Assembly: GCA_037134215.1 (NCBI GenBank)
Contig: JBAXMQ010000009.1
Span: 19,197 to 51,196, forward strand
Length of the DNA stretch: 32,000 bases
DNA from: Betaproteobacteria bacterium
GTDB lineage: Bacteria > Pseudomonadota > Gammaproteobacteria > Burkholderiales > Burkholderiaceae_C
Direction of reading: 5' to 3'
Positions 1,084-29,145 of the stretch are shown piece after piece. The position numbers and the translations under genes are program-made. Under the pieces are notes generated by a model, which searched no databases, was not told the origin of the DNA, and was given only the letters and a program-made list of their open reading frames with translations. Numbering within the stretch: position 1 is the first letter of the stretch; the number at the start of each line of letters is the position of its first letter.

Positions 1084-1106
1084 AGTTTGATCATCCGGAG
1101 ACAACC

Positions 1107-2807: not shown

Positions 2808-2827
2808 AGCGCTCATCGCTGTCCGGC

Positions 2828-3613: not shown

Positions 3614-3645
3614 TAAGCTGTGCTTATGTTTAAACAGGGTGGAAG

Positions 3646-4263
3646 ATGGGGATGCCTCGGCTGATCGTGTCGATTGACGGCGACGTTGTCAAAGAGATCG
3701 TCCTGTCCAAGGCGCGCACCACCGTGGGCCGCAGACCTTATAACGACATCGTGCTCGACAACCTGGCGATCAGTGGCGAGCACGCCGTGCTGGTTATGGA
3801 CGAGCAGGCGCTGCGCATTGAGGACCTGGGCAGCACCAATGGCACGCGCGTCAATGGCGAGACTGTGCGCAACCATGTATTGCGGGATGGCGACGTCATC
3901 GCCATTGGCAAATACAGCCTGGCCCTCGCTCACCCGTTGCTGCCTGCTGCGGCCGTTTTGGCCGATGAGGCCGATGAAACCGACAGCGCGCAGCAGACAC
4001 CAAGGCCAGCGTCCATCAAGGTCATTTCAGGTCGGTCGACTGGCCGTGAACTGGCCCTGACCAAGGCCGTGACAACCCTGGGCAAGCCCAGCGTCGCGGT
4101 CGCGGCCATCACGCGCCGTCCCAACGGCTTTGTGCTGCACCACATGGAGGGCAGCGACCGGGCTGTCGTCAACGGTGTGCCGGTCGGGCCGGACGCCGTG
4201 CCCCTGGAACACGGCGACAGCATCCTGCTGGCGGGTACCACCATGCAGTTTTTGCAGCCATGA
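3646..4263 (+). CDS. FHA-domain protein with a canonical N-terminal FHA and a degenerate C-terminal FHA-like domain
   Basis: FHA1 has TTVGRRPYNDIVLDNLAISGEHAVL...GSTNGTRVNG, with the Gly-Arg, Ser-x-x-His and Asn signature residues. The second half (TTLGKPSVAVAAI...GSDRAVVNG) has the FHA fold pattern but lacks the Arg and Ser/His pThr-contact residues. The alternative start ATG 3652 has better spacing to GGGTGGA (3637-3643). Confidence 0.85.
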   Translation: MGMPRLIVSIDGDVVKEIVLSKARTTVGRRPYNDIVLDNLAISGEHAVLVMDEQALRIEDLGSTNGTRVNGETVRNHVLRDGDVIAIGKYSLALAHPLLPAAAVLADEADETDSAQQTPRPASIKVISGRSTGRELALTKAVTTLGKPSVAVAAITRRPNGFVLHHMEGSDRAVVNGVPVGPDAVPLEHGDSILLAGTTMQFLQP

Positions 4264-4330
4264 GCGGTCCTGCCTGCCAGCTTGTGCCACTGCTGGCGCG
4301 CCATCAATCCGCATCCTGAGCCATAGCCCC

Positions 4331-6580: not shown

Positions 6581-6593
6581 GGAGTAAGCACCC

Positions 6594-7385
6594 ATGAAAG
6601 TCCGCGTTCTTGGCTGCTCGGGAGCGATTGCGAAGAACTGTCGAACCACGTCATTCTTGTTGGATCGCGATGTCCTGATTGACGCGGGCACCGGCGTCGG
6701 CGATCTGACCCTGGAGGAAATGAGGGACATTGACCACGTCGTGTTGACCCACTCTCACCTTGACCATGTGGCGGCCTTGCCACTGATGGTCGATTCTGTG
6801 GGAGCCTTACGGACGCGACCCTTGCAGGTGCATGGGTTGCCGGAGACGGTCGATGCGCTCAAAGCCCATATTTTCAACGACGTGATCTGGCCCGACTTCA
6901 GCCGCATCCCCACGCCGGATCAACCCTTTATCCAGTTCAGCGTGATGGCCGTGGGTGACGTGCTGCAGTTCGGCGACAAAGCGGTGGAGGTGTTGCCGGC
7001 GGTCCACTCTGTGCCTGCGGTAGGCATTGCCGCCACTGGCGGCAATGGCTATTGGGTGTTCAGCGGTGACACCGGACCCAACCCTGCTTTCTGGGCCAGA
7101 GTCAACCAGCTGCCAGTGAGTGCGCTGGTGATCGAAACCGCCTTTAGCAACCGCGAGCACAGGCTGGCCCAGCTCAGCTTGCATCTTTCGCCAGCCATGC
7201 TGGCGGAAGAAATTGCCAACATCGCTGGCGACCGCCGCTTTCCGATCTACATCACCCACACCAAGCCAGCCGCGACCGAACTGATCATGCAAGAAATCGA
7301 AGTCTTCAATCAGCAAGACGGTGGCGATCAGGCGGGCTTGTACGACATTCGCTGGCTGCGGGCGGGGAAGGAGTTCAATTTGTGA
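6594..7385 (+). CDS. Class II 3',5'-cyclic-nucleotide phosphodiesterase (metallo-beta-lactamase fold)
   Basis: GAGGAG at 6579-6584 lies 9 nt before ATG 6594. The N-terminus VRVLGCSG..., FLLD..VLIDAGTG and the class II PDE signature HSHLDHV (6750-6770) are present. The start is 13 nt after the cyclase stop. Confidence 0.8.
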   Translation: MKVRVLGCSGAIAKNCRTTSFLLDRDVLIDAGTGVGDLTLEEMRDIDHVVLTHSHLDHVAALPLMVDSVGALRTRPLQVHGLPETVDALKAHIFNDVIWPDFSRIPTPDQPFIQFSVMAVGDVLQFGDKAVEVLPAVHSVPAVGIAATGGNGYWVFSGDTGPNPAFWARVNQLPVSALVIETAFSNREHRLAQLSLHLSPAMLAEEIANIAGDRRFPIYITHTKPAATELIMQEIEVFNQQDGGDQAGLYDIRWLRAGKEFNL

Positions 7386-9790: not shown

Positions 9791-9876
9791 TTGATAAATA
9801 TGGTCCGACAAGAATGTCAATTGCGCAAGAATGGGCTTGCATCGGATGTCAGAGGTGATGAATATGGCGTTTTCGG

Positions 9877-9892
9877 GCTGGCATGAATGCTG
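9877..9892 (+). promoter_or_regulatory. Sigma-54 (RpoN) -24/-12 type promoter upstream of the pilin gene
   Basis: CTGGCATGAATGCTGC matches TGGCAC-N5-TTGC at the invariant GG (9879-9880) and GC (9891-9892) with the correct spacing. It lies about 53 nt upstream of the pilin ATG. ATGTCA repeats at 9814-9819 and 9846-9851 could be enhancer-binding-protein sites. Confidence 0.5.
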
Positions 9893-9944
9893 CCAACACG
9901 ACTGCCCCAAGTCTGGTTTTGTCTCATTTACCAAGGAGTGTTTT

Positions 9945-10358
9945 ATGGAACGCAAATCACAACAGGGTTTCACCCTGATCGAGTTGATGATCGTGGTGGC
10001 CATCGTCGGCATTCTTGCGGCCGTGGCGCTGCCGGCCTATCAGGACTACACCAAGAGAGCCAAATTCACCGAGGTGGTGTCAGTCGGTACCAGCTACCAG
10101 ACCGCGGTGTCTGCCTGCGTCCAGGATCTGGGTACGCTGACCGGTTGTTCGTTGGGCACCAATGGCATTCCCGCCTCGCAGGCCACCGTGCACGTGACCT
10201 CGGTCGGTGTCACTGACGGGGTGATCACGGTCACGCCCACTGCCACCACCGATGCCGCCGCCACCCTGGTGCTGACACCAACCCTCGGTGTGGGCGCTTT
10301 AACCTGGGCCAAAACCGGCAGCGGCTGCCTGACCTCCAACCCGGTGCTCTGCCGCTAA
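9945..10358 (+). CDS. pilA: Type IVa major pilin (prepilin with an 8-residue leader)
   Basis: AAGGAG lies upstream of ATG 9945. The sequence MERKSQQG|[27 protein letters not shown] has the class III signal peptide, with Gly-1, Phe+1 and Glu+5. Two Cys pairs are present (C..C in [13 protein letters not shown] and the C-terminal [10 protein letters not shown]). Confidence 0.92.
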
Positions 10359-10376
10359 GCCAGGTCTTCCAGCGGG

Positions 10377-11960
10377 ATGCGAGCTCCGGCCACCCCTGCG
10401 TTGGGCGACTTGGCACCAACCCGGTGGCCGCTTGCCTGGGGCCAGTCGGTCGTGATGCTGGCTTTGCTGTTGCCCTGGGTCAATCCTTTTGCACCTTTCC
10501 CGTCGTCGGCGGTGGTGCAGAGCCTGCTCAGTGTTGCGGGTCTGGCCCTGTTGCTTTTGCTGCCACTGAAGCGTGACGGGGTCGCAGTTTTGGCGCAAAC
10601 CAACGCGTCAGTCTGGTTGTGCGCGGCGCTGCTGAGTTGCGTGTTGGCGCCGATCCAGTATTTCGGCGCTTCAGCCGCCTGGTTTCCCTGGGTCAACGGC
10701 ACGGCGGCGGGGGAGGCGTTTGCCAATCTGCGCCAGCGCAACCAATTTGCCACGCTCACCAGCATCGGCTTGCTCGCGCTGATCTGGGTGCAGGCCTGCG
10801 GTCAACCCCAAGCGCGCTTTCAGACGCAAGGCCGGTTGCCAGCGCTGGCTGTCTCGCCCGCGCCGGCCTGGGCTGCCGCCGCGCTGCTGGCGGTCGGCAA
10901 TGCGCTGTCATCCTCCCGCACCGGCTTGTTGCAGCTTTTGATGATGTCGGCGCTGCTGCTGGGCTGCCGCTCGTGGCGCAACGCTCAGGCGCTCCGGCTG
11001 CTGCTGGTCGCCGTCATGGCCTATCTGGCCGCACTGCTGGTGATGCCCTGGCTGGCTGGCTTCGCCTTCGCTGAATCTGGCATGCTGTCCAGACTGCGAG
11101 AGATCGAAAGCTCGTGCCAGGCCCGTTCCCAGCTGTGGCGTAATGTGATTTACCTGATTGCCCAGCGACCCTGGGCGGGTTGGGGTTGGGGCGAGCTCGA
11201 CTACGCGCACTTCATCACGCTCTACCCCGGGCCGCGCTTCTGCGACATTCTGGACAACGCCCACAACCTGCCCTTGCATCTGGCGGTGGAATTGGGTTTA
11301 CCGGCTGCCCTGGGTATTTGTGGGCTGGCCCTGTACCTGATGGTGCGCGCCCAACCCTGGCGCGAAGCCGATCCCACCCGGCAACTGGCCTGGGGCGTGC
11401 TGGCCATCATTGGCGTACACAGCCTCCTGGAGTACCCACTCTGGTACGGACCCTTCCAGCTTGCTTTTGGGGTGTCTTTGACCTTGTTGTGGCTGACGGG
11501 CTCACGCTTCCCGGCCCCGCCCGCCGATGTCCTGGCCACGGTCTACAGCGGGGCCCGTGGCTGGCTGGCACGTGCCATGGTTGCCATTGGCCTGGTGCTG
11601 GCCACCGCCGATGTCGCTCTGGACTATGTTCGGGTTCACCAGTTTTACCTGCCGCTGGCAGATCGCGCCAGCCTGTACCGCAATGACACCTTGGCAACCA
11701 CCTCCCGCTCGGGCTGGTTCGCCCACTGGGTGGACTTTGCCGAGCTGACCACCACGGTGCCCGATGCGTACAACGCCGCGCGCCTGCAAGCCATGGCCGA
11801 GCGACTGTTGCATGTGTCGCCTGAGCCGCGCGTGATTGAAAAGCTCATTGACACCGCCCTCCTGCAGCAGCAGGCAGAGCGCGCACAGTTTTACCTGGTG
11901 CGCTACCAAGCGGCGTTCCCGAGGGAGCATGCGGACTGGCTCAGGCGCCATCCGGGGTAA
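10377..11960 (+). CDS. PglL/O-antigen-ligase (Wzy_C) family polytopic membrane protein; likely pilin/protein O-oligosaccharyltransferase
   Basis: The gene starts 18 nt downstream of the pilin stop. It encodes a multi-TM protein with a Wzy_C-type loop (SSSRTGLLQL, WAGWGWGE, DNAHNLPLHLAVELG) and a soluble C-terminal tail like that of PglL-type enzymes. The start is uncertain; ATG 10377 is taken. Confidence 0.75.
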   Translation: MRAPATPALGDLAPTRWPLAWGQSVVMLALLLPWVNPFAPFPSSAVVQSLLSVAGLALLLLLPLKRDGVAVLAQTNASVWLCAALLSCVLAPIQYFGASAAWFPWVNGTAAGEAFANLRQRNQFATLTSIGLLALIWVQACGQPQARFQTQGRLPALAVSPAPAWAAAALLAVGNALSSSRTGLLQLLMMSALLLGCRSWRNAQALRLLLVAVMAYLAALLVMPWLAGFAFAESGMLSRLREIESSCQARSQLWRNVIYLIAQRPWAGWGWGELDYAHFITLYPGPRFCDILDNAHNLPLHLAVELGLPAALGICGLALYLMVRAQPWREADPTRQLAWGVLAIIGVHSLLEYPLWYGPFQLAFGVSLTLLWLTGSRFPAPPADVLATVYSGARGWLARAMVAIGLVLATADVALDYVRVHQFYLPLADRASLYRNDTLATTSRSGWFAHWVDFAELTTTVPDAYNAARLQAMAERLLHVSPEPRVIEKLIDTALLQQQAERAQFYLVRYQAAFPREHADWLRRHPG

Positions 11961-15798: not shown

Positions 15799-17449
<1,651 letters not shown>

Positions 17450-17462
17450 CCGGGTTCAGGCG

Positions 17463-17490
17463 GTTTATTTCAGGCAGTTTATTTCAGCCG
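17463..17490. repeat. Short tandem direct repeat (2 x about 14 nt, GTTTATTTCAG core)
   Basis: GTTTATTTCAG occurs at 17463-17473 and again at 17477-17487. The second copy contains the stop codon and the last codons of the oxidoreductase gene on the minus strand. Confidence 0.6.
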
Positions 17491-18393
17491 CTTGATGAGG
17501 CTGGACGTGTCCCAGCGCCGCCCGCCCATTTGCTGCACGTCGGCGTAGAACTGGTCCACCAAGGCCGTGACCGGCAAGCGTGCGCCGTTGCGCTTGGCCT
17601 CATCAAGGACCAAACCGAGATCCTTGCGCATCCAATCCACGGCAAAGCCGAACTCGAACTTGCCCGCCACCATGGTTTTGCCACGGTTGTCCATCTGCCA
17701 GCTCTGAGCCGCACCCTTGCCGATGACCTCCAACACCTGAACCATGTCCAGCCCCGCCTGTTCACCAAAAGCGATGGCTTCGCTCAAACCCTGTACCAGC
17801 CCAGCGATGCAGATCTGGTTGACCATCTTGGCCAGCTGGCCGGCGCCACTGGCGCCCAGCAGCGTGAACGCGCGTGAAAAAGCCATGGCCACGGGCTGGG
17901 CTGCATCAAAGGCCGCCTGATCGCCACCGCACATCACGGTCAGCAGCCCATTTTGGGCGCCCCCCTGGCCACCCGAGACCGGGGCATCGACAAAGTGCAG
18001 CCCCAGCGCTGTCGCCGCCGCAGACAGCTCGCGCGCCACGGTGGCCGAGGCTGTGGTGTGGTCTACGAAGACCGTCCCGCCGGCCATGCCAGCAAAGGCG
18101 CCATCCGCGCCCAGTGTCACACCGCGCAGGTCATCGTCGTTGCCGACACAGCAAAACACCAGGTCGGCGCCGCTGGCGGCCTCACGGGGTGTGGCAGCGT
18201 GTTTCAGGGTGCCAGGCCCCGTGAACTCTTGACACCATGCTACTGATTTAGAAGCAGTCCGGTTATAGACCGTGACATGATGCCCGGCCAGGGCGAGGTG
18301 CCCGGCCATGGGGTAGCCCATCACGCCCAGGCCAAGAAAGGCGACTTTGCGCGGCGCAGTAGCGTCATAGTTTTTGGGGTTCAGGCTGCTCAT
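17479..18393 (-). CDS. NAD(P)-dependent oxidoreductase, 3-hydroxyisobutyrate/6-phosphogluconate dehydrogenase-like family
   Basis: The start is placed at ATG 18393 (MSSLNPK...), 7 nt after the pilU stop, with AGGAA upstream. The Rossmann motif VAFLGLGVMGYPMAGHL is present, and the C-terminal domain is typical of the HIBADH family. Confidence 0.85.
   Translation of the reverse strand: MSSLNPKNYDATAPRKVAFLGLGVMGYPMAGHLALAGHHVTVYNRTASKSVAWCQEFTGPGTLKHAATPREAASGADLVFCCVGNDDDLRGVTLGADGAFAGMAGGTVFVDHTTASATVARELSAAATALGLHFVDAPVSGGQGGAQNGLLTVMCGGDQAAFDAAQPVAMAFSRAFTLLGASGAGQLAKMVNQICIAGLVQGLSEAIAFGEQAGLDMVQVLEVIGKGAAQSWQMDNRGKTMVAGKFEFGFAVDWMRKDLGLVLDEAKRNGARLPVTALVDQFYADVQQMGGRRWDTSSLIKRLK
18239..18256. 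repeat. Copy of the AT-rich motif GCT..T.AATCAGTAGCA (minus-strand sense), inside the oxidoreductase CDS
   Basis: The minus-strand reading GCTTCTAAATCAGTAGCA matches the putA copy at 31729-31746 at 15 of 18 positions by hand alignment, including the 11-nt exact run AATCAGTAGCA. Confidence 0.5.
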
Positions 18394-18400
18394 GGGTTCC

Positions 18401-19537
18401 TTAGACAATGGCAAAATTTTCGGTGCCGGCACCCAAATTCTGGGATCTGGCGCGCTGGCTGTTGAGTTTGATTTGCAGACGCAGGTCGTTCACCGAGTCG
18501 GCATTGCGTAGCGCATCTTCGTAGGTGATGGATTCGGCTTCAAAGGCATCGAACAAGGCCTGGTCAAAGGTCTGCATGCCCATGTTGCGGCTCTTCTTCA
18601 TGACCTCCTTGATTTCTGCCACTTCGCCCTTGAACACCAGATCGGAAATCAGGGGTGAGTTCAGCAAAACCTCGACGATGGCCGCGCGACCCTTGCCGCT
18701 TTGTTTGGGGACCAGCCGTTGCGAGATGATGGCCTTGAGGTTCAAAGACAAATCCATCAGCAACTGGGCCCGTCGCTCCTCAGGGAAAAAATTGATGATG
18801 CGGTCCAGCGCCTGGTTGGCACTGTTGGCGTGCAGGGTGGCCAGGCACATGTGGCCGGTTTCGGCGAAAGCCACCGCATGTTCCATGGTTTCGCGGTCGC
18901 GGATCTCGCCCATCAGGATCACATCGGGCGCCTGACGCAGCGTGTTCTTCAGCGCGGCATCCCAGTTGTCAGTGTCGAGGCCGACCTCGCGCTGAGTCAC
19001 CATGCAGTTTTTGTGCGGGTGCACGAACTCGATCGGGTCCTCGATCGTGATGATGTGGCCGTAGGACTGCTCATTGCGCCAGTCCACCATGGCCGCGAGC
19101 GTGGTGGATTTGCCAGAGCCGGTGGCGCCGACCAGGATGCAAAGACCGCGCTTGGCAATCACCACGTCCTTGAGCACCTGGGGCACACCCAAGCCATCGA
19201 TGGTGGGCACCGTGGTGGGAATGGCTCGCAGGACCATCCCCGCCTGGTTCTGTTGGACAAAGGCATTGACCCGAAAGCGACCGATGCCCACCGGAGAAAT
19301 CGCGAAATTGCACTCCTTGGTGGTCTCGAATTCGGCCGCCTGCCGGTCGCTCATGACCGCGCGCACCAGAGCGCCGGTCTGGGTGCCGTTGAGCCCGTCG
19401 GCCGAGAGCTTGGTCATTTTCCCGTCCACCTTGATGGCGGGCGGAAAGCCGGCCGTGATGAACATGTCACTGCTCTTGCGGCTGAGCATCAACTCCAGCA
19501 ATTGCCGGACGAAGTCGTAGGCCTGTGTCGTTTCCAT
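18401..19537 (-). CDS. pilU: PilU-type twitching-motility ATPase (PilT paralogue)
   Basis: AAGGAG lies 5 nt upstream of the ATG. The 378-aa product has Walker A GATGSGKSTTLA, DVILMGEIRD and TGHMCLATLHAN. It lacks the PilT AIRNLIRE motif. Confidence 0.9.
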   Translation of the reverse strand: METTQAYDFVRQLLELMLSRKSSDMFITAGFPPAIKVDGKMTKLSADGLNGTQTGALVRAVMSDRQAAEFETTKECNFAISPVGIGRFRVNAFVQQNQAGMVLRAIPTTVPTIDGLGVPQVLKDVVIAKRGLCILVGATGSGKSTTLAAMVDWRNEQSYGHIITIEDPIEFVHPHKNCMVTQREVGLDTDNWDAALKNTLRQAPDVILMGEIRDRETMEHAVAFAETGHMCLATLHANSANQALDRIINFFPEERRAQLLMDLSLNLKAIISQRLVPKQSGKGRAAIVEVLLNSPLISDLVFKGEVAEIKEVMKKSRNMGMQTFDQALFDAFEAESITYEDALRNADSVNDLRLQIKLNSQRARSQNLGAGTENFAIV

Positions 19538-19558
19538 AGCATCTCCTTCGGGTTGCGT

Positions 19559-20188
19559 TCAGACTCGGTCACTGAGGCGGGCGCCCACCACCCGCAGGCG
19601 CAGAGACATCTTGCGCGCCAGCAGTGACATGAGTCCGGCAACCAGTTCGGAATCATTCGCCAGCATGCGATTCATGGCGTCGGCTGTCAGCACCGCCAGT
19701 TCGCACCGGCTGCGCGTGACACAGCTGGAGAACCGCACACCGCTGTCGAGCAGCGACATTTCACCCAGCATCTCGCCGGGCACCACCTCGGCCAGGCGCA
19801 GGCGTTCGCCCCACGATTGCGTGCGCTCCACGGCGACCCGGCCCGTCAACAACACCACCATGTAGTCGCCATGCTCATCCTGGCGGATGATTTCCTGATC
19901 GGGCGGTACAAGGGAAAAATTCAGGAAATCCTTCATGCGCCCGATGGTCCGCTGGTTGAGCTGACCCATGTGTTTGTCCATGCCCCACAAGGCCTGCAAC
20001 TGACCCATGCCCACGCCCGCATTCATCGGCTCAGCGCCGATGTCGATGGCCCGGGCTTCCCAGGGGACCGCACGCCGGTTATCGGCCGCGAGTGGGTCCA
20101 GCGCGGTGCCGAACAGCCGCTGAACCACGGGCTCTTCCTTGGCCTGAAGTCCGAGTTTTTCGCCGATCTGACGGAGGATCTCTTTCAT
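19559..20188 (-). CDS. Cyclic nucleotide-binding (CAP_ED) domain protein with an unassigned roughly 85-aa N-terminal region
   Basis: The 209-aa product shows the beta-roll pattern IIRQDEHGDYMVVLLTGRVAV...VPGEMLGEMSLLDSGVRFSSCV. The gene lies 25 nt after the pilT stop and 21 nt before the pilU start, with GGAG upstream of its ATG. Confidence 0.8.
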   Translation of the reverse strand: MKEILRQIGEKLGLQAKEEPVVQRLFGTALDPLAADNRRAVPWEARAIDIGAEPMNAGVGMGQLQALWGMDKHMGQLNQRTIGRMKDFLNFSLVPPDQEIIRQDEHGDYMVVLLTGRVAVERTQSWGERLRLAEVVPGEMLGEMSLLDSGVRFSSCVTRSRCELAVLTADAMNRMLANDSELVAGLMSLLARKMSLRLRVVGARLSDRV

Positions 20189-20213
20189 GTCGCGCTCCAG
20201 TGCAGTCGGGGCT

Positions 20214-21257
20214 TCAGCCCGGGAAATTCTCGGGAATCTTGGCCTTGGTTCGGGCTTCGGCCGGGCTGATCACATTGCGTTTGACCAAATCGGTCAGGTT
20301 TTGGTCCAGCGTCTGCATGCCCACGCTGTTGCCGGTCTGGATGCTGGAGTACATCTGCGCCACCTTGGCCTCCCGGATCAGGTTGCGGATGGCGTTGGTG
20401 CCCAACATGATCTCGTGCGCCGCCACCCGGCCCTGACCGTCCTTGGTCTTGCACAGCGTCTGCGAGATCACCGCCTGCAGTGACTCGGACAGCATGGCAC
20501 GCACCATTTCCTTCTCTTCGGCAGGAAAGACGTCAATGATCCGGTCGATGGTCTTGGCGGCGCTCGAGGTGTGCAGTGTGCCAAACACCAGGTGGCCGGT
20601 TTCTGCGGCCGTCATGGCCAGCCGGATGGTCTCGAGGTCGCGCATCTCGCCCACCAGGATCGCGTCCGGGTCTTCGCGCAGCGCTGAGCGCAGGGCCGAG
20701 GCAAAGCTCAGGGTGTGCGGGCCGACCTCGCGCTGGTTGATCAGGCACTTTTTCGATTCGTGCACGAACTCGATCGGGTCTTCCACCGTCAGGATGTGGC
20801 CGTATTCGTTTTCGTTGAGGTAGTTCACCATGGCCGCCAGGGTGGTCGATTTGCCCGAGCCGGTCGGGCCGGTGACCAGCACCATGCCACGCGGCTTGAG
20901 CGCGAGTTCGGCAAAGATCTTGGGGGCGTTGAGCTGTTCCAGCGACAAGATCTTGCTCGGGATGGTGCGCAGCACCGCGCCGGCACCGCGTTGGTGGTTG
21001 AACGCATTGACCCGGAACCGGGCCAGCCCCGGAATCTCGAAGGAAAAGTCAATTTCCAGAAATTCCTCGTAGTGCTTGCGTTGCGAATCGTTCATGATGT
21101 CGTACACCATGGCGTGGACCTGCTTGTGGTCCAGCGCCTCGACATTGAGTCGGCGCACGTCGCCATGGACCCGGATCATGGGCGGCAGCCCGGACGACAG
21201 GTGCAGGTCGGAGGCCTTGTTCTTGACGCTGAAGTCCAGCAGCTGGGTGATGTCCAC
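20214..21257 (-). CDS. pilT: PilT twitching-motility retraction ATPase
   Basis: The 347-aa product has MDITQLL...ASDLHLSSG, Walker A GPTGSGKSTTLA, DAILVGEMRD, TGHLVFGTLHT and the PilT-specific AIRNLIRE motif. Confidence 0.95.
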   Translation of the reverse strand: MDITQLLDFSVKNKASDLHLSSGLPPMIRVHGDVRRLNVEALDHKQVHAMVYDIMNDSQRKHYEEFLEIDFSFEIPGLARFRVNAFNHQRGAGAVLRTIPSKILSLEQLNAPKIFAELALKPRGMVLVTGPTGSGKSTTLAAMVNYLNENEYGHILTVEDPIEFVHESKKCLINQREVGPHTLSFASALRSALREDPDAILVGEMRDLETIRLAMTAAETGHLVFGTLHTSSAAKTIDRIIDVFPAEEKEMVRAMLSESLQAVISQTLCKTKDGQGRVAAHEIMLGTNAIRNLIREAKVAQMYSSIQTGNSVGMQTLDQNLTDLVKRNVISPAEARTKAKIPENFPG

Positions 21258-21293
21258 GGTGGTCCCTGTCCTTTGTTACGCTTGAGCTCAATT

Positions 21294-21992
21294 ATGACGA
21301 TGATTCAGACCCAACTCCAACGCGTTCATGGCCGTATCGTGGCGGCTTGCCAGGCCGCCGGCCGGGACCCGGCCGCCGTCAGCCTGCTGGCTGTGTCCAA
21401 GACCTTTGGCCCCGAGGCGGTGCAAGCGGCCTGGGCGGTTGGCCAGACCGCGTTTGGTGAGAACTACATCCAGGAAGCGGTGCAGAAAATCACCACGCTG
21501 CGCCAGCACCCGCTGTCCGACCAGCCGCCGCTGCAATGGCACTGCATCGGCCCGATCCAGAGTAACAAGACCCGGCTGGTGGCCGAGCATTTTGATTGGG
21601 TGCACACGGTGGACCGGCTCAAGATCGCCGAGCGGCTGAGCGAGCAGCGGCCCGCCGATCTGGCGCCGCTGCAGGTCTGTATCCAGGTCAATGTGGATGG
21701 CGGTGAGACCAAGTCGGGCGTGTTGCCGCAGGACGCGCTGGCGCTGGCGCAGCAGGTGGCAGCGCTGCCTGGCCTGCGTCTGCGCGGGCTCATGAGCATT
21801 CCTGAGCCCGCTCCTGATTTCGTAGCTGCTGTCCAAGTATTCACAAGGGTTAGCACGGTTTTCGATGCCCTGAACGCAGAGGGTTTGGCGCTGGACACGC
21901 TGTCGATGGGCATGAGCGCCGACCTGGAAGCGGCCATTCATGCCGGCAGCACCCTGGTGCGGGTGGGCAGTGCCATTTTTGGTGCGCGCTGA
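21294..21992 (+). CDS. yggS: YggS-family pyridoxal-phosphate homeostasis protein
   Basis: The start is placed at ATG 21294. The part of the ORF upstream of this is antisense to pilT. LLAVSKT (PLP lysine), FGENYIQE, WHCIGPIQSNK and LSMGMS..DLEAAI...VRVGSAIFG are present. The gene is divergent from pilT, as in P. aeruginosa. Confidence 0.9.
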   Translation: MTMIQTQLQRVHGRIVAACQAAGRDPAAVSLLAVSKTFGPEAVQAAWAVGQTAFGENYIQEAVQKITTLRQHPLSDQPPLQWHCIGPIQSNKTRLVAEHFDWVHTVDRLKIAERLSEQRPADLAPLQVCIQVNVDGGETKSGVLPQDALALAQQVAALPGLRLRGLMSIPEPAPDFVAAVQVFTRVSTVFDALNAEGLALDTLSMGMSADLEAAIHAGSTLVRVGSAIFGAR

Positions 21993-24007: not shown

Positions 24008-25317
24008 AAACCATCAACGCCTTTGACCCGGCCACGCTGAACGCGCTTCCCGAGCGGCGGCAGGCCCTGATCCGCCGGCGCGAGGCGCTGCTTGGGCCGG
24101 CCTACCGCCTGTTCTACCAGGACCCGGTGGAGTTGGTGCGCGGCCAGGGCGTATGGGTGTGGGACGCCGAGGGCAAACGTTACCTGGACGCCTACAACAA
24201 CGTGGTGTCCCTGGGGCACTGCCACCCGCACGTGGTGCGGGCCCTGCAAGAGCAGGCCGCCACGCTCAACACGCACACTCGTTACCTCAACGAGGCGCTG
24301 CTGGACTATGCCGAGCGCCTGCTGGCCACGCACCACCCCAGCCTGGACCGTCTCATGTTCACCTGCACCGGCAGCGAGGCCAATGACCTGGCGCTGCGGC
24401 TGGCGCAGTTCCACACCGGTGGCAGCGGTGTCATCGTGACGGATTGGGCTTACCACGGTGTCACGCAGAGCACGGCCGCCTGCTCGCCCTCCCTGGGGGC
24501 ATCTGACGCCGGTCCACTGAGGGTGTACACCGTGCCGGCCCCCAGCGGTGATGGCGACGGTGTGGGCGTGGCCTTTGCCGCTGGCATTGAGCAGGCCATC
24601 CTGCGGATGCAGGCCGACGGCGTGCGCCCGGCCGCGTTGCTGGTCGATACCCTGTTCACCAGCGACGGCGTGTACGGTGCGCCAGCGGGTTTTCTGCAAG
24701 CGGCGGTGGCCTGTGCCCGCGCCGCTGGCCTGCTGGTGATTGCCGACGAGGTGCAACCCGGCTTCGGCCGCACCGGCAGCCACATGTGGGGCTACCAGCG
24801 CCATGGCCTTGCGCCCGATCTGGTCACCATGGGCAAACCCATGGGCAACGGTCACCCCCTGGCCGGCCTGTGTGCCCGGCAGGACCTGCTGGACGCGTTT
24901 GGTCGCGAGACGCGCTACTTCAACACCTTTGGCGGCAACACGGTGAGTGCGGCGGTGGGCATGGCGGTGCTGGACGTGCTCGAAGGCGAGCTGTTGCTGG
25001 AGAACGCCCAGACCCAGGGCGCTTACTTCAAGCAGAGCCTGCAGGCGCTGGCCCGGCGCCACGCCTGGATGGGTGAGGTGCGCCAGTTCGGGCTGTTCCT
25101 GGGTGTGGCGCTGGTGCACGACGGCGACCCGGCCCGTCCGGCGGCTGAGGCCACCACCCGGGTGGTGAACGGCATGAAAGCCCGTGGCGTGCTCATCAGC
25201 GCCTGCAGCCGAACCGCCAATGTGCTCAAAATCCGTCCGCCGCTGGTGCTGGAGCGCGGCCATGTGGACATGTTTATGGAGGCTCTGGAGGACTGTCTGG
25301 GGGGCTTGACACGCTGA
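24004..25317 (+). CDS. Class III PLP-dependent aminotransferase-fold enzyme (possible phospho-lyase partner of the upstream kinase)
   Basis: The start overlaps the kinase stop (ATGA). GVWVWDAEGKRYLD, TGSEANDLALR, IADEVQPGFGRTG and the PLP-lysine context VTMGKPMGNGHP are present. Confidence 0.9.
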   Translation: MKTINAFDPATLNALPERRQALIRRREALLGPAYRLFYQDPVELVRGQGVWVWDAEGKRYLDAYNNVVSLGHCHPHVVRALQEQAATLNTHTRYLNEALLDYAERLLATHHPSLDRLMFTCTGSEANDLALRLAQFHTGGSGVIVTDWAYHGVTQSTAACSPSLGASDAGPLRVYTVPAPSGDGDGVGVAFAAGIEQAILRMQADGVRPAALLVDTLFTSDGVYGAPAGFLQAAVACARAAGLLVIADEVQPGFGRTGSHMWGYQRHGLAPDLVTMGKPMGNGHPLAGLCARQDLLDAFGRETRYFNTFGGNTVSAAVGMAVLDVLEGELLLENAQTQGAYFKQSLQALARRHAWMGEVRQFGLFLGVALVHDGDPARPAAEATTRVVNGMKARGVLISACSRTANVLKIRPPLVLERGHVDMFMEALEDCLGGLTR

Positions 25318-27562
25318 GCCTCGCCAGCAGCGCCTGGAAGTCTTTGCGTTTGATGGGTTTGATCAGGTAATCGGTCATGCCTGAATCGATGGCGTTCTGG
25401 CGGTCCAGCTCGGACGCAAAGGCGCTGCACCCGACGATCGGCAGCGCGCCCCAGGGCTGTCCGGGCTCGCGGATGGTCTGGGTGGCCGCCAGCCCGTCTA
25501 GCACCGGCATCTGGATGTCCATCAAGACCAGGTCGAACGCCTCTTCCCGCAGCGCTTGCACCGCCTGCTGGCCGTCTTCCACCACGCGGACCGTGTGGCC
25601 CAGGTCTGCCAGCATCAAGCGCACCACCAGGGCGCTGGTCGGGGTGTCTTCGGCCACCAATACCCGCAAGGCCGACCTGGATCGGTTTTGCAGCAGCCGG
25701 CTGGCGTGCTGGGCCAAGGCCTCCAGCGCGCTCAGCTGCTGCGGACTGAGTTCGCGCGGTTGGGTGTCGATCACACACAGCGTGCCCAGCGCCTGACCCG
25801 TGGCATCGGTCAGGGGCACGCCGGCATAAAAACGGAAGTTGGACTCACCAGTCACCAGCGGGTTGGACGCGAAGCGCGGGTCGGTGGTGGCATCGGGCAC
25901 CACCATGGTGTGCGTCGGCGTCTGTATGGCGTGGGCACAAAAGGCCTGTTCCCGCGGCGTCTCGCCGGCAGCCAGACCAACCCTGGCCTTGAACCACTGT
26001 CGCTTGTCGTCCACCAGAGAAATCAGCGCGATCGGCGTGCCGCAGACGCGCGCGGCGCCGGCCACCAGCTCATCGTAGGCCGCCTCCGGGTCAGTATCCA
26101 TGATGGTCAGGTTGGCCAGCGCCTGCAGCCGGACCTGCTCCTGAGCCGGGTGCCATTGCACGGTCTGCAGCGGCACGCAAAAGGTGAAGGTGGCGCCCTC
26201 ACCTTCTGTGCTGTGCATGGTGAGCGTGCCACCCATCAGCAGGGCGTAGCGCTGGCAGATGGACAGCCCGAGGCCGGTTCCGCCGGAAAAACCCGACAAC
26301 TTGACGAAAGGCTCAAAAATCCGCTGCTGCATCGCTGCCGAGATGCCAGGGCCGGTGTCTGTGACGGCCAGGCACAGGCGTACCTGGTCTGGCCCCTCAA
26401 CCGAGGCGCTGACGTCCAGCGTCACGCTGCCGCTTGGGGTGAATTTGACCGCATTGCCCAGCAGGTTGAGCAATACCTGCTTGATCCGGCGCGCGTCGCC
26501 CCGCAGCCTGCGGGGCACATCTTCGGCCATGCGGTACGCCACTGTGAGCAGACGCGCCGCCGGTACGGACTCGATGATGCGGAACGCGGCGGCCACCAGC
26601 TCATACAGGTCAAACGCTTCTTCTTCGAGTCGCTCCTTGCCCGATTCGGCGCTGCTGAAGTCCAGGATCTGGTTAATGATGGCCAGCAGGTGCTCGGATG
26701 ATTCCTCGATGGTCCGGATTTTCTGGCGCAGCGCCTCGTCCAGCGGGCCGTTGGCAATCACGCTGGCCATGCCCATGATGCCGTTCATCGGCGTGCGCAA
26801 TTCATGACTCACCATCGAGATGAAGTTGCTTTTCGCCTTGTTGGCCTCTTCCGCCGCCATCCGCAGCGAGACGTTGGTGCGCGAGTCCTCCTCGGCCAGT
26901 TGGCGTGCGGCCGTCAGCGCCTGCTCGCGACGGACCAGTTCCTGCCGGAATTTTTCGAAGGACCGAGACAGTTCACCGATTTCGTCGTTGGTGAACGTGG
27001 TTTGCGGCGGGATGTTTGCGGGCGCATCGACATGGGTGAGATTTTTCCGCAGCGCCCGGATGGGCCGCGTGACGTACAGCCAGTGCAGCAGCAGGCTGAG
27101 TGCGACCATACCCACCCCGATGATCAGCACCGCAGCCTCAAAGTCGCGCGTGGCTTGGCGCACCGCGCCCGAACGCAAGCTGCCGTCAAAGTAAATCACC
27201 AAGGCGCCCAGGCGCTCCTTGGCGCCAGTGATGCGGACCGAGACCTTTTGCAGGCCATTCGGCGCCGATATGGCGTTGGTCGGGTAAATGCGCTGGCCCT
27301 GCGCGTCGTAGGCTTCAACCAATGCCCAGTCCGGCCGGTTGGCCCAGACCCGGCTGAGTGTGGCGGCCACCTCGGCATGTTGGCCGGTTTTCATGTCATT
27401 GCTCAGTGCCTCTGCCAGCACCGTGGCGCTGTTGCGCTCGGCATCGTCATCCCAATGCGACAACTCCTGGCTCAGGTGAGGGACCAGCCAGAAGGCGAAG
27501 CCCAGCGAAACCGCCAGGAAAAAAATCAATACCGGTCCGCTGGTCTTGAGAAAGATCTTCAT
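25274..27562 (-). CDS. Hybrid sensor histidine kinase: TM - periplasmic domain - TM - HAMP - HisKA - HATPase_c - GAF - REC
   Basis: The H-box SHELRTPMNGI, the N/G boxes (LLGNAVKFT, DTGPGI, GTGLGLSI), a GAF-like segment (ALISLVDDKRQWFKA...FYAGVPL...GTLCVID) and a receiver (LVAEDT...DLVLMDIQMP...KP) are all present. Confidence 0.9.
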   Translation of the reverse strand: MKIFLKTSGPVLIFFLAVSLGFAFWLVPHLSQELSHWDDDAERNSATVLAEALSNDMKTGQHAEVAATLSRVWANRPDWALVEAYDAQGQRIYPTNAISAPNGLQKVSVRITGAKERLGALVIYFDGSLRSGAVRQATRDFEAAVLIIGVGMVALSLLLHWLYVTRPIRALRKNLTHVDAPANIPPQTTFTNDEIGELSRSFEKFRQELVRREQALTAARQLAEEDSRTNVSLRMAAEEANKAKSNFISMVSHELRTPMNGIMGMASVIANGPLDEALRQKIRTIEESSEHLLAIINQILDFSSAESGKERLEEEAFDLYELVAAAFRIIESVPAARLLTVAYRMAEDVPRRLRGDARRIKQVLLNLLGNAVKFTPSGSVTLDVSASVEGPDQVRLCLAVTDTGPGISAAMQQRIFEPFVKLSGFSGGTGLGLSICQRYALLMGGTLTMHSTEGEGATFTFCVPLQTVQWHPAQEQVRLQALANLTIMDTDPEAAYDELVAGAARVCGTPIALISLVDDKRQWFKARVGLAAGETPREQAFCAHAIQTPTHTMVVPDATTDPRFASNPLVTGESNFRFYAGVPLTDATGQALGTLCVIDTQPRELSPQQLSALEALAQHASRLLQNRSRSALRVLVAEDTPTSALVVRLMLADLGHTVRVVEDGQQAVQALREEAFDLVLMDIQMPVLDGLAATQTIREPGQPWGALPIVGCSAFASELDRQNAIDSGMTDYLIKPIKRKDFQALLARLSVSSPPDSPPEPP

Positions 27563-27595
27563 GGGTCCAGCGCTGGCCAGGGATTCGTCGCCGCG

Positions 27596-28519
27596 CTAGT
27601 TGGCCGGGCCGATGCCGCTCTTGTACATCGCCCGGTTGCGCGCCAGGTAGTTGGCGTAGTCGGCAGCCGGCATGAACACGCTGCGCGCGCCGAGTTTGGC
27701 CAACTGCTGGTCGAGTTCCGGATCGGCCGCAGCGGCCTGACAGGCCTTTTCCAGCCGGGTCATCATGACGGCAGGCGTGCCCTCCGGGGCCGCCAGGCCA
27801 CGGTGGACGCTGTAATCCACCGGGATCCCCTGTTCCTTGAAGGTGGGAATGGTGGGCAGGCGCGGGTCGCGCGCCGGCGACGAAATCGCCACCGGCACAA
27901 TGCCCTTGTTGGCCGGGTCCAGCAGAACTTCCGGGTTGATTTCGGCCACATCCACCTCACCGTCCACCAAGGCGCTCACCGCGGCCGACTTGCTGCTGAA
28001 CTGTTTGAAGCTGAGGCTGAGCCCGGTCGCTTTTTCCAGTTGCGCCAGCATCATGAAGTTGGTTGAGGTGGGGCCCAATGTCCAGCTCGCCGTCAACTTC
28101 TTAGACTTGTCCAGCCAGGCTTTGGGATCTTTGCTGCCGAGCGCGGCCCGGCTCATGCCCAGAATCGACGGCACGTAGACGATGCCGCAGACCGGTTTGA
28201 GCCCAGCCAGCGGATCGGAAGCCAATTTGCCGCTGCGCATGACCGAGAACAGGTATTCATGGACAGTGACCACGGCGCTGCCATCGGCCGGGCGTTTGGC
28301 CGCTTCGAGCACACCTGTGGCGCCGAAATTGCCGGGCAGGTTGGTGGGCGTCACCTTTTCGGCGAGGTGCTTGGCCAGAAAGGGCGCGATCGGGCGCATC
28401 AGGGCGTCGGTTTCACCGCCTTCCGGCCAGGGGATGATCAGCTCCAAGGCCGAAGCACGGGCCATCACCAAAAGGCAAGCCACCAGCGCCAAGGGCTTTC
28501 CGATTCTTCTCATTGCCAA
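27596..28519 (-). CDS. Bug/TctC-family periplasmic solute-binding protein
   Basis: A signal peptide is followed by LELIIPWPEGGETD...NLPGNFGATG, typical of tripartite tricarboxylate transporter receptors. The gene ends 33 nt before the kinase start. The alternative start is ATG 28513. Confidence 0.85.
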   Translation of the reverse strand: MAMRRIGKPLALVACLLVMARASALELIIPWPEGGETDALMRPIAPFLAKHLAEKVTPTNLPGNFGATGVLEAAKRPADGSAVVTVHEYLFSVMRSGKLASDPLAGLKPVCGIVYVPSILGMSRAALGSKDPKAWLDKSKKLTASWTLGPTSTNFMMLAQLEKATGLSLSFKQFSSKSAAVSALVDGEVDVAEINPEVLLDPANKGIVPVAISSPARDPRLPTIPTFKEQGIPVDYSVHRGLAAPEGTPAVMMTRLEKACQAAAADPELDQQLAKLGARSVFMPAADYANYLARNRAMYKSGIGPAN

Positions 28520-28565
28520 TTATCCATTCCAACCACTGCGATTGCCATCATAGTTGGGGAGTGTG

Positions 28566-29042
28566 TCACAAAACCAGTGCCAGCCGAGTCGAGTTTTTCA
28601 CCTCCTCCATCACCGCGTAGGTGCGGGTCTCGCGCACGCCGGGCAGCTGCCACAGCACGGTGCCGGCAAAGTCGCGGTAGGCGCTCATGTCGGCCATGCG
28701 GGTTTTGAGCAGGTAGTCAAAGCCGCCCGCCACCATGTGGCACTCCATGATTTCCGGGCGCACCTGCACCGCGGCCTTGAAAGCCTCGAACACATTGGGC
28801 GTGGTGCGGTCCAGCAGCACCTCGACAAACACCAAAAGGCCAGCGCCGAGCTTGAGCGGGTTCAGCCGGGCCTCATAGCCCAGGATGAAACCCTCCCGCG
28901 TCAGGCGTTGCACCCGCGCCAGCACGGCGGTGGGCGACAGGGTCACGGCCTCGGCCAATTTCAGGTTGCTGATGCGGCCGTCCTCCTGCAGGCAGGCCAG
29001 GATTTTCAGGTCGACGCGGTCCAGGTCGGGCGGTGTGATCAT
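28566..29042 (-). CDS. Lrp/AsnC-family transcriptional regulator (PutR-like by position)
   Basis: The HTH LDRVDLKILACLQEDGRISNLKLAEAVTLSPTAVLARVQRL is followed by an AsnC-type ligand-binding domain. The gene is divergent from putA. Confidence 0.9.
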   Translation of the reverse strand: MITPPDLDRVDLKILACLQEDGRISNLKLAEAVTLSPTAVLARVQRLTREGFILGYEARLNPLKLGAGLLVFVEVLLDRTTPNVFEAFKAAVQVRPEIMECHMVAGGFDYLLKTRMADMSAYRDFAGTVLWQLPGVRETRTYAVMEEVKNSTRLALVL

Positions 29043-29145
29043 GGCTGGAGTGATAAATATTCAACTATTTAATTGATAAATTTTAGTGAATAGTTTGTCC
29101 TTAAAACCTGGAACATAGCGTCATCAATTCATTTTGGAGCGCGCC
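29043..29145. promoter_or_regulatory. AT-rich divergent control region between the Lrp/AsnC regulator and putA
   Basis: This 103-nt, strongly AT-rich segment sits in a GC-rich genome. The direct repeat TGATAAAT occurs at 29051-29058 and 29074-29081. GGAG at 29136-29139 lies 6 nt before the putA ATG. Confidence 0.5.

Follow-up and report, generated by a model that had tools for sequence, protein, structure and literature searches.

To our knowledge, a post-translational role for a second messenger at the motors of type IV pili is so far known only for c-di-GMP at the extension ATPase PilB, with cAMP acting only through transcription (Vfr, SyCRP1), and few direct regulators have been described for the retraction ATPases PilT and PilU, in contrast to PilB, for which there are several second-messenger receptors. 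In P. aeruginosa, as far as we know, pilT and pilU are adjacent, and cbpA, the gene of a cAMP-binding protein, does not lie between them. Two articles describe c-di-GMP receptors at pilus motors, namely the FimX-PilZ-PilB system of Xanthomonas and Pseudomonas and the MshEN domain of MshE and PilB (PMC5595344, PMC8389850); according to two others, CbpA of Pseudomonas aeruginosa (PA4704; Endoh and Engel 2009) is reported at the cell poles, the site of the pilus machinery and of CyaB (PMC3019171, PMC11139211). In the 32,000-nucleotide stretch of betaproteobacterial DNA analysed here (the window), a gene for a protein with a cyclic-nucleotide-binding (CNB) domain lies between pilT and pilU, a position for which we found no paper describing a CNB gene.

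Conserved gene order at pilT and pilU

The minus strand of the window carries, in order, pilT (20214-21257; 347 aa, GTG start), which is the first gene of the unit, the CNB gene (19559-20188; 209 aa, ATG start), pilU (18401-19537; 378 aa, ATG start) and, as the last co-oriented gene, one for an NAD(P) oxidoreductase resembling HIBADH and 2-hydroxy-3-oxopropionate reductase (17479-18393, counted from its ATG; PF03446 and PF14833). The gaps in the open reading frame table are 25, 21 and 7 nt. Each gene is preceded by its own Shine-Dalgarno-like motif: AGGGA 5 nt before the GTG of pilT, GGAG 6 nt before the ATG of the CNB gene, AAGGAG 5 nt before that of pilU and AAGGA 4 nt before that of the oxidoreductase gene. 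This is the layout given by the first-pass annotation, including the 7 nt between the pilU stop and the oxidoreductase. We found no terminator-like site on the minus strand in 17300-21500. Co-transcription of the CNB gene with pilT and pilU is very probable, as the tight spacing and shared strand indicate and as had been proposed, and a single mRNA would then encode its product together with PilT and PilU.

Both flanking ATPases exceed the cut-off of 319 bits for the PilT/PilU family TIGR01420, with 507 bits for the pilT product and 450 bits for that of pilU, and solved structures tell the two apart. The best solved relative of the first is P. aeruginosa PilT (3jvu, 565 bits; only 270 bits to a PilU protein), and its translation contains the motif AIRNLIRE; the second is closest to the 'PilU protein' 9n32 (486 bits; PilT 3jvu reaches 286 bits), which makes it the PilT-dependent accessory retraction ATPase. 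The oxidoreductase scores below every NCBIfam equivalog cut-off; its gene comes next after pilU wherever a locus extends far enough.

Scanning one genome per species, we found relatives of the CNB protein in 485 species-level genomes. The order pilT-CNB-pilU was observed in all 80 of the loci retrieved from among these, and five distant members with 29-40% identity (P0381, P0367 from Corticibacter populi, P0403, P0415 and P0529 from Ideonella) likewise have PilT and PilU as neighbours. The synteny survey proposed in the first-pass annotation thus places the CNB gene between pilT and pilU in 85/85 loci, from genera of the Comamonadaceae to Ideonella, and the possibility that the insertion is confined to one strain fails across these genera. 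The carriers are freshwater and soil Betaproteobacteria, comprising Comamonadaceae and Sphaerotilaceae-type species and including Acidovorax plant pathogens and, as environmental genera, Rhodoferax, Variovorax and Ideonella. The family is sharply delimited (57 clusters at 50% identity, E<=1e-30). It evolves much faster than PilT and PilU, with 49-56% identity where PilT retains 88-97%, and its dN/dS of 0.12-0.32 indicates purifying selection. What look like PilT-CNB and CNB-PilU fusions in metagenomes are artefacts of frameshifts and give no Rosetta-stone support.

We considered whether this position reflects no more than a frozen chromosomal block, the CNB protein being a cyclic nucleotide (cNMP) receptor unrelated to pili, for instance one that buffers cAMP or regulates the oxidoreductase or another target. 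The order yggS, pilT-CNB-pilU-oxidoreductase, BON-SIS-UPF0102 and rsmI is syntenic over taxa ranging from Rhodoferax and Alicycliphilus to Ideonella, genes without known pilus role included, and the oxidoreductase has no obvious pilus link yet is as syntenic as the pil genes. Since the whole block is equally syntenic, the conserved order by itself is weaker evidence of a functional link than it may seem; adjacency of yggS and pilT is reportedly also conserved in several phytopathogenic bacteria (PMC8787154). What speaks against a purely positional explanation is that the CNB family occurs only between pilT and pilU in all 85 loci, that the gaps leave no room for independent promoters or terminators, and that the stand-alone CNB proteins next in similarity are found in other, unrelated gene neighbourhoods (one generic example, P0444, with a profile E of about 1e-19, has no pil genes beside it), so that the family diverged together with its position. 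On this evidence we regard a receptor unrelated to pili as unlikely.

Domain architecture and ligand pocket of the CNB protein

Residues 94-179 (19652-19909, minus strand) match the Pfam family cNMP_binding (PF00027) with 67.0 bits, well above the cut-off of 27.5, and the match covers positions 4-89 of the 89-position profile. The AF2 model (mean pLDDT 74) has the eight-stranded CNB fold, with helices at residues 57-87, a beta-barrel at 89-168 and helices at 169-208, the C-helix taking up 180-208. With this model as query, Foldseek placed at the top 3gyd (TM-score 0.76 normalised to target, E 4e-11), M. tuberculosis CRP and C. glutamicum GlxR with cAMP; among 609 PDB matches at E<=0.001, the best 50 are all CNB-domain or CRP-family proteins, and the CNB domains of PKA and PKG are also among the fold matches. 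Profile comparison with the PDB gave GlxR, M. tuberculosis CRP and the stand-alone CNB protein 3gyd at E about 1e-13, and the matches to CRP-family sensors span profile E of about 1e-13 to 1e-10 with a Foldseek probability of 1.0.

The Pfam search found no HTH family in the protein at E<=0.1, all NCBIfam CRP/FNR equivalogs score far under their cut-offs (PRK11753, 33 against 266 bits, over profile positions 27-132 alone), and the chain stops at residue 209, the end of the C-helix. Domain search and model therefore agree with the earlier description of a stand-alone CNB protein lacking a DNA-binding HTH, in which a sensor domain of the CRP type is followed by a long C-helix alone. We reject an identity as a CRP/FNR transcription factor, there being no C-terminal winged-helix/HTH after the C-helix, and the label 'CRP/FNR family transcriptional regulator', carried by many family members despite their having no DNA-binding domain, should be corrected. 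A protein of this kind could still serve as an HTH-less co-regulator of transcription, using its C-helix to pair with a full-length CRP/FNR protein or contacting RNA polymerase, and so render pil expression cAMP-responsive; its C-helix sequence LARKMSLRLR does align with MARRLQVTS of the CRP dimerisation helix, and several databases use the regulator name for members. Those names, however, are automatic transfers from the CNB domain, the protein, in which no HTH was detected, stops at the end of the C-helix, and the conserved block contains no CRP/FNR partner gene. We consider a co-regulator very improbable.

An N-terminal part without known family had been noted as about 85 residues long. Such a part is present, but it measures about 55 residues, since the alignments with GlxR and 3gyd, by sequence and by fold, begin as early as residues 61-69, and in the model the helices that normally open a CNB domain lie at 57-87. 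This family-specific extension (residues 1-56; 20021-20188, minus strand) was delimited from the AF2 model and two alignments, A1 with 29 family members and A2 with distant members added. It consists of a short helix, a linker at residues 12-37 predicted to be disordered (pLDDT <50) and a conserved VPWEARA motif (residues 41-47; 20048-20068, minus strand), of which W43 and R46 are invariant in A1; over residues 41-60 the model averages a pLDDT of about 93. We also observed two further invariant segments, one in the beta4-beta5 hairpin (R122, Q124, W126-G127-E128, R131, L132, E134) and one at the end of the C-helix (R192, K193, S195, R197-L198-R199, V201, A203-R204-L205).

CNB domains use a Gly-Glu pair for the ribose 2'-OH and an Arg for the phosphate. 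In the phosphate-binding cassette (PBC) of the CNB protein, LGEMSLLDSGVRFSS (19724-19768, minus strand), these are kept as G142, E143 and R152, followed by F153 and S154; the first-pass annotation had the right site, with an end at 19765 that falls 3 nt short. None of the three varies in A1, and in A2 each is conserved to at least 90%, in line with its statement that the Glu and Arg are kept. F153 is likewise invariant in A1, and the wider family has R-[FWYL]-[SAC] after the PBC Arg, so that the family departs from the usual [STA] directly after this residue. The five closest solved CNB domains with a PBC alignment read R-A-A, R-T-A, R-S-A or R-T-S, and none has Phe after the Arg. Of the Phe-Ser pair that had been singled out as unusual, the Phe is indeed so, whereas the Ser is ordinary and occurs also in cAMP-binding GlxR (R-T-S), whose GELSIFDPGPRTSS aligns with the cassette. 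Among generic CNB representatives, the R-F-[AS] variant is found in 23 of about 115 motifs, in other uncharacterised bacterial CNB proteins. The Phe may alter or occupy the pocket; AF2 confidence for PBC residues 145-151 is <50.

Such a pocket would suit a pilus-motor accessory that uses the CNB fold as a scaffold, or one that senses a molecule other than cAMP or cGMP, the Phe filling or reshaping the site and the protein acting constitutively or with another small molecule as ligand, as is common among sensor domains of the CRP/FNR type. Consistent with this are the invariance of R-F-S in A1, the absence of Phe from the five solved relatives, the low model confidence of the cassette and the recurrence of R-F-[AS] in other bacterial CNB proteins; cNMP binding is known to be absent from CNB-fold sensors such as CooA, NtcA, CprK and the domains of KCNH channels. 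CNB folds that do not bind cNMP usually lose the Glu and Arg contacts, however, which in this family are invariant or nearly so even at 29% identity, and a cAMP cyclase, a phosphodiesterase (PDE) and a GAF module at the partner motor are encoded in the same window. A scaffold or a sensor of some other molecule is in our view rather unlikely, and we prefer a protein that most likely binds a 3',5'-cyclic nucleotide, cAMP being the best guess.

Cyclic-nucleotide genes at the pilB locus

On the plus strand of the window, a gene for a CHASE2/class III nucleotide cyclase (4130-6580, with a probable start at ATG 4328; identified by Pfam) and one for a class-II cAMP-phosphodiesterase-like enzyme of metallo-beta-lactamase fold (6594-7385; PF02112 PDEase_II, 52 bits) lie directly upstream of the gene for a GAF-MshEN-PilB extension ATPase (7382-9790; 802 aa, domains from Pfam), whose start the PDE-like gene overlaps by 4 nt. 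A type IV major pilin gene follows (9831-10358; Pfam N_methyl and Pilin), its true start probably near 9945; the orthologue in locus L083 was called as 137 aa. The alignment of the cyclase motifs TIDKYMGD and SYTVIGD with TIDKFVGD and DYTIIG of P. aeruginosa CyaB (3r5g), and with TIDEFMGD and KYGVVG of 2w01, which we take to be the Synechocystis guanylate cyclase Cya2, shows Lys and Thr at the two substrate-specifying positions, as in the adenylate cyclase CyaB. The best solved relative of the PDE-like enzyme is 3',5'-cyclic-nucleotide phosphodiesterase 1 (4ojv), and its gene stands directly upstream of GAF-PilB in Rhodoferax too. By sequence similarity, the PilB GAF domain is closest to cNMP-binding GAFs: its best solved relatives are the cAMP-binding GAF of CyaB2 (1ykd, E 6.8e-21) and the cGMP-binding GAF-B of PDE2A (1mc0/3ibj, E about 1e-12), and most of the remaining matches are GAFs of cyclic-nucleotide phosphodiesterases.

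The idea that both motors read the same messenger gains context from the cyclase, the PDE-like gene and the cNMP-type GAF of PilB. The 9-kb closeness of the CNB gene to GAF-PilB is itself lineage-specific. Judging from equal lengths in bp, the two genes appear on one contig in two further genomes (P0146/L051, 809,893 bp; P0155/L030, 1,510,014 bp); Alicycliphilus has the CNB gene and no GAF-PilB within 10 kb of it.

The pairing of a cyclase with a CNB-domain protein also recalls Pycsar-like anti-phage systems, in which the CNB protein would be the effector. PADLOC gave two weak matches, one between the CNB part and PycTIR-type effectors (22 bits, E 1e-5) and one between the cyclase and PycC (96 bits), and PycTIR 8jsk is among the PDB matches (E 5e-6). 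Only the CNB part matches, however, and there is no TIR or transmembrane effector domain, so that the domain architecture effectively refutes an effector identity. Moreover, the cyclase, which is the nearest one, lies 13 kb from the CNB gene and combines the adenylate-type Lys/Thr pair with a CHASE2 sensor, and the CNB gene belongs to the core genome, fixed in its place between pilT and pilU, and not to a mobile island. We give a Pycsar-like system almost no credence.

Proposed role and comparison with known receptors

From these observations, we tentatively hypothesize that the CNB protein acts on the retraction motors as an accessory regulator responsive to cAMP, a plausible reading that we stop short of calling probable. 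The protein would probably dimerise through its C-helix, like CRP, and bind in a ligand-dependent manner to the PilT and/or PilU hexamer, or to the PilT-PilU pair, thereby tuning retraction; candidate contact surfaces are the beta4-beta5 hairpin, the end of the C-helix and the VPWEARA motif. With a cyclase, a PDE and a cNMP-type GAF at the extension motor, cAMP could set the balance of extension and retraction post-translationally at both motors. A bolder version, which we think unlikely as it stands, makes the protein a cAMP-gated dimeric 'regulatory subunit' that couples or uncouples the PilT-dependent PilU as the cAMP level changes and that, with the adenylate cyclase, PDE and GAF-PilB, forms a fully post-translational cAMP circuit. 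Taken together, the locus suggests that cAMP may act directly on pilus retraction. A family fixed between pilT and pilU in hundreds of species is a concrete and cheap candidate for a regulator of the retraction ATPases. Should the protein bind both cAMP and a retraction motor, pili would be under post-translational cAMP control beyond transcription of the CRP/Vfr type, and the cyclase-PDE-GAF-PilB module would make this bacterial group a natural model for a messenger-controlled balance of extension and retraction.

Among proteins of known structure, the best structural match and a top sequence match is Mfla_1926 of Methylobacillus flagellatus (3gyd, from structural genomics), likewise a small, single-domain, betaproteobacterial CNB protein with a GEMS..D...R..SC cassette; unlike the CNB protein, it has R-S-A in the PBC and no VPWEARA extension. 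The sensor domains of the CRP family (E. coli CRP, C. glutamicum GlxR 3r6s/4cyd, M. tuberculosis CRP 3i54) share with the CNB protein, in identical order, the N-terminal helices, the beta-barrel, the Gly-Glu...Arg cassette and the long C-helix. It differs from these receptors in the missing C-terminal HTH, so that it is not a classical transcription factor, in the additional 55-residue N-terminus and in R-F-S where they have R-[ST]-[AS]; its invariant R197/L198 occupy the alignment positions of T127/S128, which in CRP contact the base. Another candidate for comparison is CbpA, the cAMP-binding protein reported at the cell poles of P. aeruginosa. By analogy, the regulatory subunit of cAMP-dependent protein kinase may be instructive, in that it combines CNB with an N-terminal linear docking segment and changes its binding to the enzyme when cAMP fills the PBC, although the CNB protein lacks both a second CNB domain and a kinase as partner. 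The c-di-GMP receptors at pilus motors follow the logic of the proposed role, a small receptor or domain in each case reading a nucleotide messenger and contacting a pilus ATPase; they differ in recognising a cyclic dinucleotide rather than a mononucleotide, in using a PilZ, EAL or MshEN fold rather than CNB, and in acting on the extension ATPase, whereas the presumed targets of the CNB protein are the retraction ATPases.

Gene order at the pilT-pilU locus and its conservation

Four co-oriented genes lie on the minus strand of the window: pilT (20214-21257, 347 aa, with a GTG start), a gene for a 209-aa protein with a cyclic-nucleotide-binding (CNB) domain (19559-20188), pilU (18401-19537, 378 aa) and a HIBADH/tartronate-semialdehyde-reductase-like oxidoreductase gene (17479-18393). 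The ATG of the oxidoreductase, at 18393, lies 7 nt past the pilU stop, and an alternative, longer ORF from a GTG would overlap pilU. The genes are spaced by 25, 21 and 7 nt, and a Shine-Dalgarno-like purine-rich motif is present 4-6 nt 5' of every start codon (AGGGA, GGAG, AAGGAG and AAGGA, in gene order from pilT to the oxidoreductase). The six-frame ORF list and the minus-strand sequence confirm the arrangement described in the first-pass annotation. Between 17300 and 21500 we found no sigma-70 consensus promoter and, on the minus strand, no terminator-like hairpin; each of the four terminator-like matches in this interval lies on the plus strand, at chance level. A search of the window for Rfam families and tRNA found none. 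Given the short gaps, the individual Shine-Dalgarno motifs and the lack of a minus-strand terminator-like hairpin between the genes, the simplest reading is that all four would be carried on one transcript.

Both flanking ATPases exceed the TIGR01420 PilT/PilU cut-off of 319 (507 bits for pilT, 450 bits for pilU), and it is the comparison with solved structures that tells them apart: the product of the first gene scores 565 bits against P. aeruginosa PilT (3jvu) and 270 bits against a PilU protein, while that of the third scores 486 bits against a 'PilU protein' (9n32) and 286 bits against PilT. We therefore identify the first as PilT and the third as PilU. The oxidoreductase, which follows pilU in every homologous locus that is long enough, scores below every NCBIfam equivalog cut-off. 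Upstream, the divergent starts of pilT (GTG, 21257) and yggS (ATG, 21294) are separated by only 36 nt (21258-21293), and both promoters must therefore overlap adjacent coding regions. The adjacency of yggS and pilT is reported to be conserved in several phytopathogenic bacteria (PMC8787154).

The CNB family is large yet has sharp limits: 1,442 proteins (90% clusters) match at E<=0.001 and 57 clusters (50% identity) at E<=1e-30, and below about 100 bits the matches turn into generic CNB domains. Relatives were found in 485 genomes, one per GTDB species, the best 80 of which come from Rhodoferax, Acidovorax, Alicycliphilus, Xylophilus, Variovorax, Ramlibacter, Simplicispira and Comamonas, as well as unnamed Comamonadaceae or Burkholderiales. 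In all of these 80 loci tblastn places PilT directly upstream of the CNB gene, and a same-strand PilU, then the oxidoreductase, directly downstream in every locus whose contig is long enough. The arrangement extends to five distant members of 29-40% identity (P0381, P0367 from Corticibacter populi, P0403, P0415 and P0529 from Ideonella sp.), which are flanked by PilT and PilU, the neighbouring PilT being 79-87% identical. P0444, a stand-alone CNB protein of the generic kind that falls narrowly outside the family, has unrelated genes as neighbours. The dN/dS ratio is 0.12-0.32 for the CNB gene, 0.02-0.04 for pilT and 0.02-0.14 for pilU; the CNB gene is thus under purifying selection, with weaker constraint than either motor gene.

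We stress that the block conserved from the window to Alicycliphilus and Ideonella is longer, comprising yggS (called as an Ala_racemase_N gene in relatives' loci), pilT-CNB-pilU-oxidoreductase, BON-SIS-UPF0102 and rsmI. Gene order is stable throughout it, and therefore order alone cannot prove a functional link. A cyclic-nucleotide receptor that has no role in the pilus and is merely frozen within this syntenic block would show the same order; we consider this explanation rather unlikely.

Apparent PilT-CNB and CNB-PilU fusions in metagenome clusters were rejected as artefacts, being frameshifted read-throughs with out-of-frame tails. We read four such longer matches, of which P0370 and P0405 also carry a PilT-type ATPase domain and P0388 and P0411 run into the PilU N-terminus; they are liable to pass as Rosetta-stone evidence.

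A CRP-type sensor domain without a helix-turn-helix

The CNB protein matches PF00027 with 67 bits (cut-off 27.5) over residues 94-179. A profile built from 29 members of the family finds, among solved structures, GlxR, M. tuberculosis CRP and 3gyd (the stand-alone CNB protein Mfla_1926 of Methylobacillus flagellatus) at E ~1e-13 and E. coli CRP at ~1e-10. In the AlphaFold2 model (mean pLDDT 74, pTM 0.69), the N-terminal part consists of a short helix, a low-confidence stretch (12-37) and a confidently placed one (41-60), and is followed by helices 57-69 and 79-87, a beta-barrel (89-168) and helices 169-178 and 180-208. In the Foldseek ranking the top match is 3gyd (TM-score 0.76, target-normalised); next come cAMP-bound M. 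tuberculosis CRP and GlxR, and then CNB domains of PKA and PKG. From the profile matches, the modelled elements and this ranking, we conclude that the protein is a CRP-type sensor domain that ends where the C-helix ends, its LARKMSLRLR aligning to MARRLQVTS of the CRP dimerisation helix. The N-terminal part without a counterpart is only about 55 residues, and not the 85 or so for which no family had been recognized at first.

The domain search matched no helix-turn-helix (HTH) family, as had been claimed from the sequence, and a CRP/FNR transcription factor is thereby ruled out. A transcriptional co-regulator that operates without an HTH would fit the likeness to CRP, but we regard it as improbable. 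For a Pycsar-like defence component the domain architecture speaks against the idea, and we give it almost no credence. We also observed that IMG names P0008, P0046, P0095, P0510-P0513 and other family members 'CRP/FNR family cyclic AMP-dependent transcriptional regulator'; these are proteins of about 209-230 aa with no HTH domain recorded, and the naming is a systematic over-annotation whose source is the CNB domain.

Residues invariant in the family fall in four regions: W43 and R46 in a VPWEARA motif; R122, Q124, W126, G127, E128, R131, L132 and E134 in the beta4-beta5 hairpin; G142, E143, M144, S145, L147, D148, G150, R152, F153, S154 and C156 in the phosphate-binding cassette (PBC; peptide LGEMSLLDSGVRFSS encoded at 19724-19768); and R192, K193, S195, R197, L198, R199, V201, A203, R204 and L205 at the end of the C-helix. 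The PBC Glu and Arg, which hold the ribose-phosphate in known cyclic-nucleotide complexes, are present, as the first-pass annotation stated, and are retained down to members of 29% identity. That annotation had also called the Phe-Ser after the Arg unusual. This stands for the Phe, since the position is taken by Ser, Thr or Ala in classical receptors, but not for the Ser, which is shared by GlxR (R-T-S). In distant members W, Y or L may take the place of the Phe. Of the solved CNB domains, the five whose PBC alignments were compared all lack an aromatic residue there; among uncharacterised CNB proteins of bacteria, a minority do carry R-F-[AS].

The protein belongs to the CNB superfamily, since it exceeds the threshold, has the fold and keeps the Gly-Glu and Arg; the [STA] expected after the PBC Arg is absent. 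Cyclic-nucleotide binding is plausible, although unproven, because the Glu and Arg are kept; the sequence does not reveal the specificity. The atypical Phe would suit a pilus accessory factor with a pocket that does not serve cAMP or cGMP, an alternative that the retained Glu and Arg do not favour and to which we assign a minor share of our confidence.

Second-messenger genes elsewhere in the window

Nine to fifteen kb from pilT-CNB-pilU, Pfam domains delineate a plus-strand cluster (2642-11960) encoding a PP2C phosphatase, an FHA protein, a CHASE2-class III cyclase, a class-II cAMP-PDE-like enzyme of metallo-beta-lactamase fold whose gene overlaps the next by 4 nt, an 802-aa GAF-MshEN-PilB extension ATPase (GAF-PilB), a pilin and a PglL-type pilin O-glycosyltransferase (O-oligosaccharyltransferase). 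No pilC or pilD is adjacent to it. The natural enzyme to which the cyclase aligns best is P. aeruginosa CyaB, and its substrate-specifying positions are Lys and Thr (TIDKYMGD, SYTVIGD), as in CyaB, versus Glu and Gly in the guanylate cyclase Cya2 (2w01); the enzyme is thus predicted to make cAMP. The PDE-like protein resembles yeast PDE1 near the HxHLDH motif. The GAF domain of PilB most resembles two GAF domains that bind cyclic nucleotides, that of Anabaena CyaB2 (cAMP; E 7e-21) and GAF-B of PDE2A (cGMP), its other PDB matches being mostly GAF domains of cyclic-nucleotide phosphodiesterases.

The PP2C-FHA-PDE-GAF-PilB core is kept in Rhodoferax ferrireducens T118 (locus L085, 4872-12421) and in another genome (locus L086, 4879-12421). 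Ahead of it, Rhodoferax has CHASE2 fused to a Ser/Thr kinase and no cyclase; in the lineage of the window (2642-9790) a CHASE2-cyclase lies between FHA and PDE. At one and the same pilus locus, the CHASE2 sensor appears to have exchanged a kinase output for a cyclase. In Alicycliphilus there is no GAF-PilB within 10 kb of pilT-CNB-pilU. The nearness of the two loci, put at 9 kb in the first-pass annotation and real in the window, is therefore lineage-specific. When the GAF region alone was searched, most matches were incomplete proteins from metagenomes, the names among them being Rhodoferax, Ramlibacter, Curvibacter, Brachymonas, Polaromonas and Rhodocyclaceae.

Elsewhere, a hybrid histidine kinase (25274-27562, minus strand) has the unusual domain order HisKA, HATPase_c, GAF, receiver, with the GAF between the catalytic and receiver domains. 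Four long ORFs (26804-28066 and 28554-29072, plus strand; 29101-31686 and 672-1874, minus strand) match no Pfam family at the thresholds applied; with the G+C content here at about 64%, some of them are probably spurious, being out of frame or on the opposite strand.

A possible role in retraction, compared with known systems

Our evidence consists of anatomy, fold, conservation and context, and it is from these that we infer ligand, oligomeric state and partner. The reading that we favour, tentatively, is that the CNB protein is an accessory of the retraction motors that does not bind DNA and responds to a cyclic nucleotide, probably cAMP; its link to retraction rests on gene context. Candidate contact surfaces are the invariant hairpin, the C-helix end and the N-terminal motif. 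Our full-text literature search found no account of a CNB protein encoded between pilT and pilU, nor of a GAF-bearing PilB, and the papers on yggS of Verminephrobacter and A. citrulli leave the CNB gene unmentioned. The gene is widespread, has no functional annotation and is easy to test.

The closest structural relative, 3gyd, is itself uncharacterised, and the mechanism may be pictured by analogy with better-known proteins. As in CRP, the CNB protein would dimerise through its C-helix; as in PKA regulatory subunits, ligand binding would alter its contact with PilT and/or PilU, for which FimX/PilZ acting on PilB offers a second analogue. Control of the pilus motor PilB by c-di-GMP is established, and so is control of pili by cAMP, at the transcriptional level.
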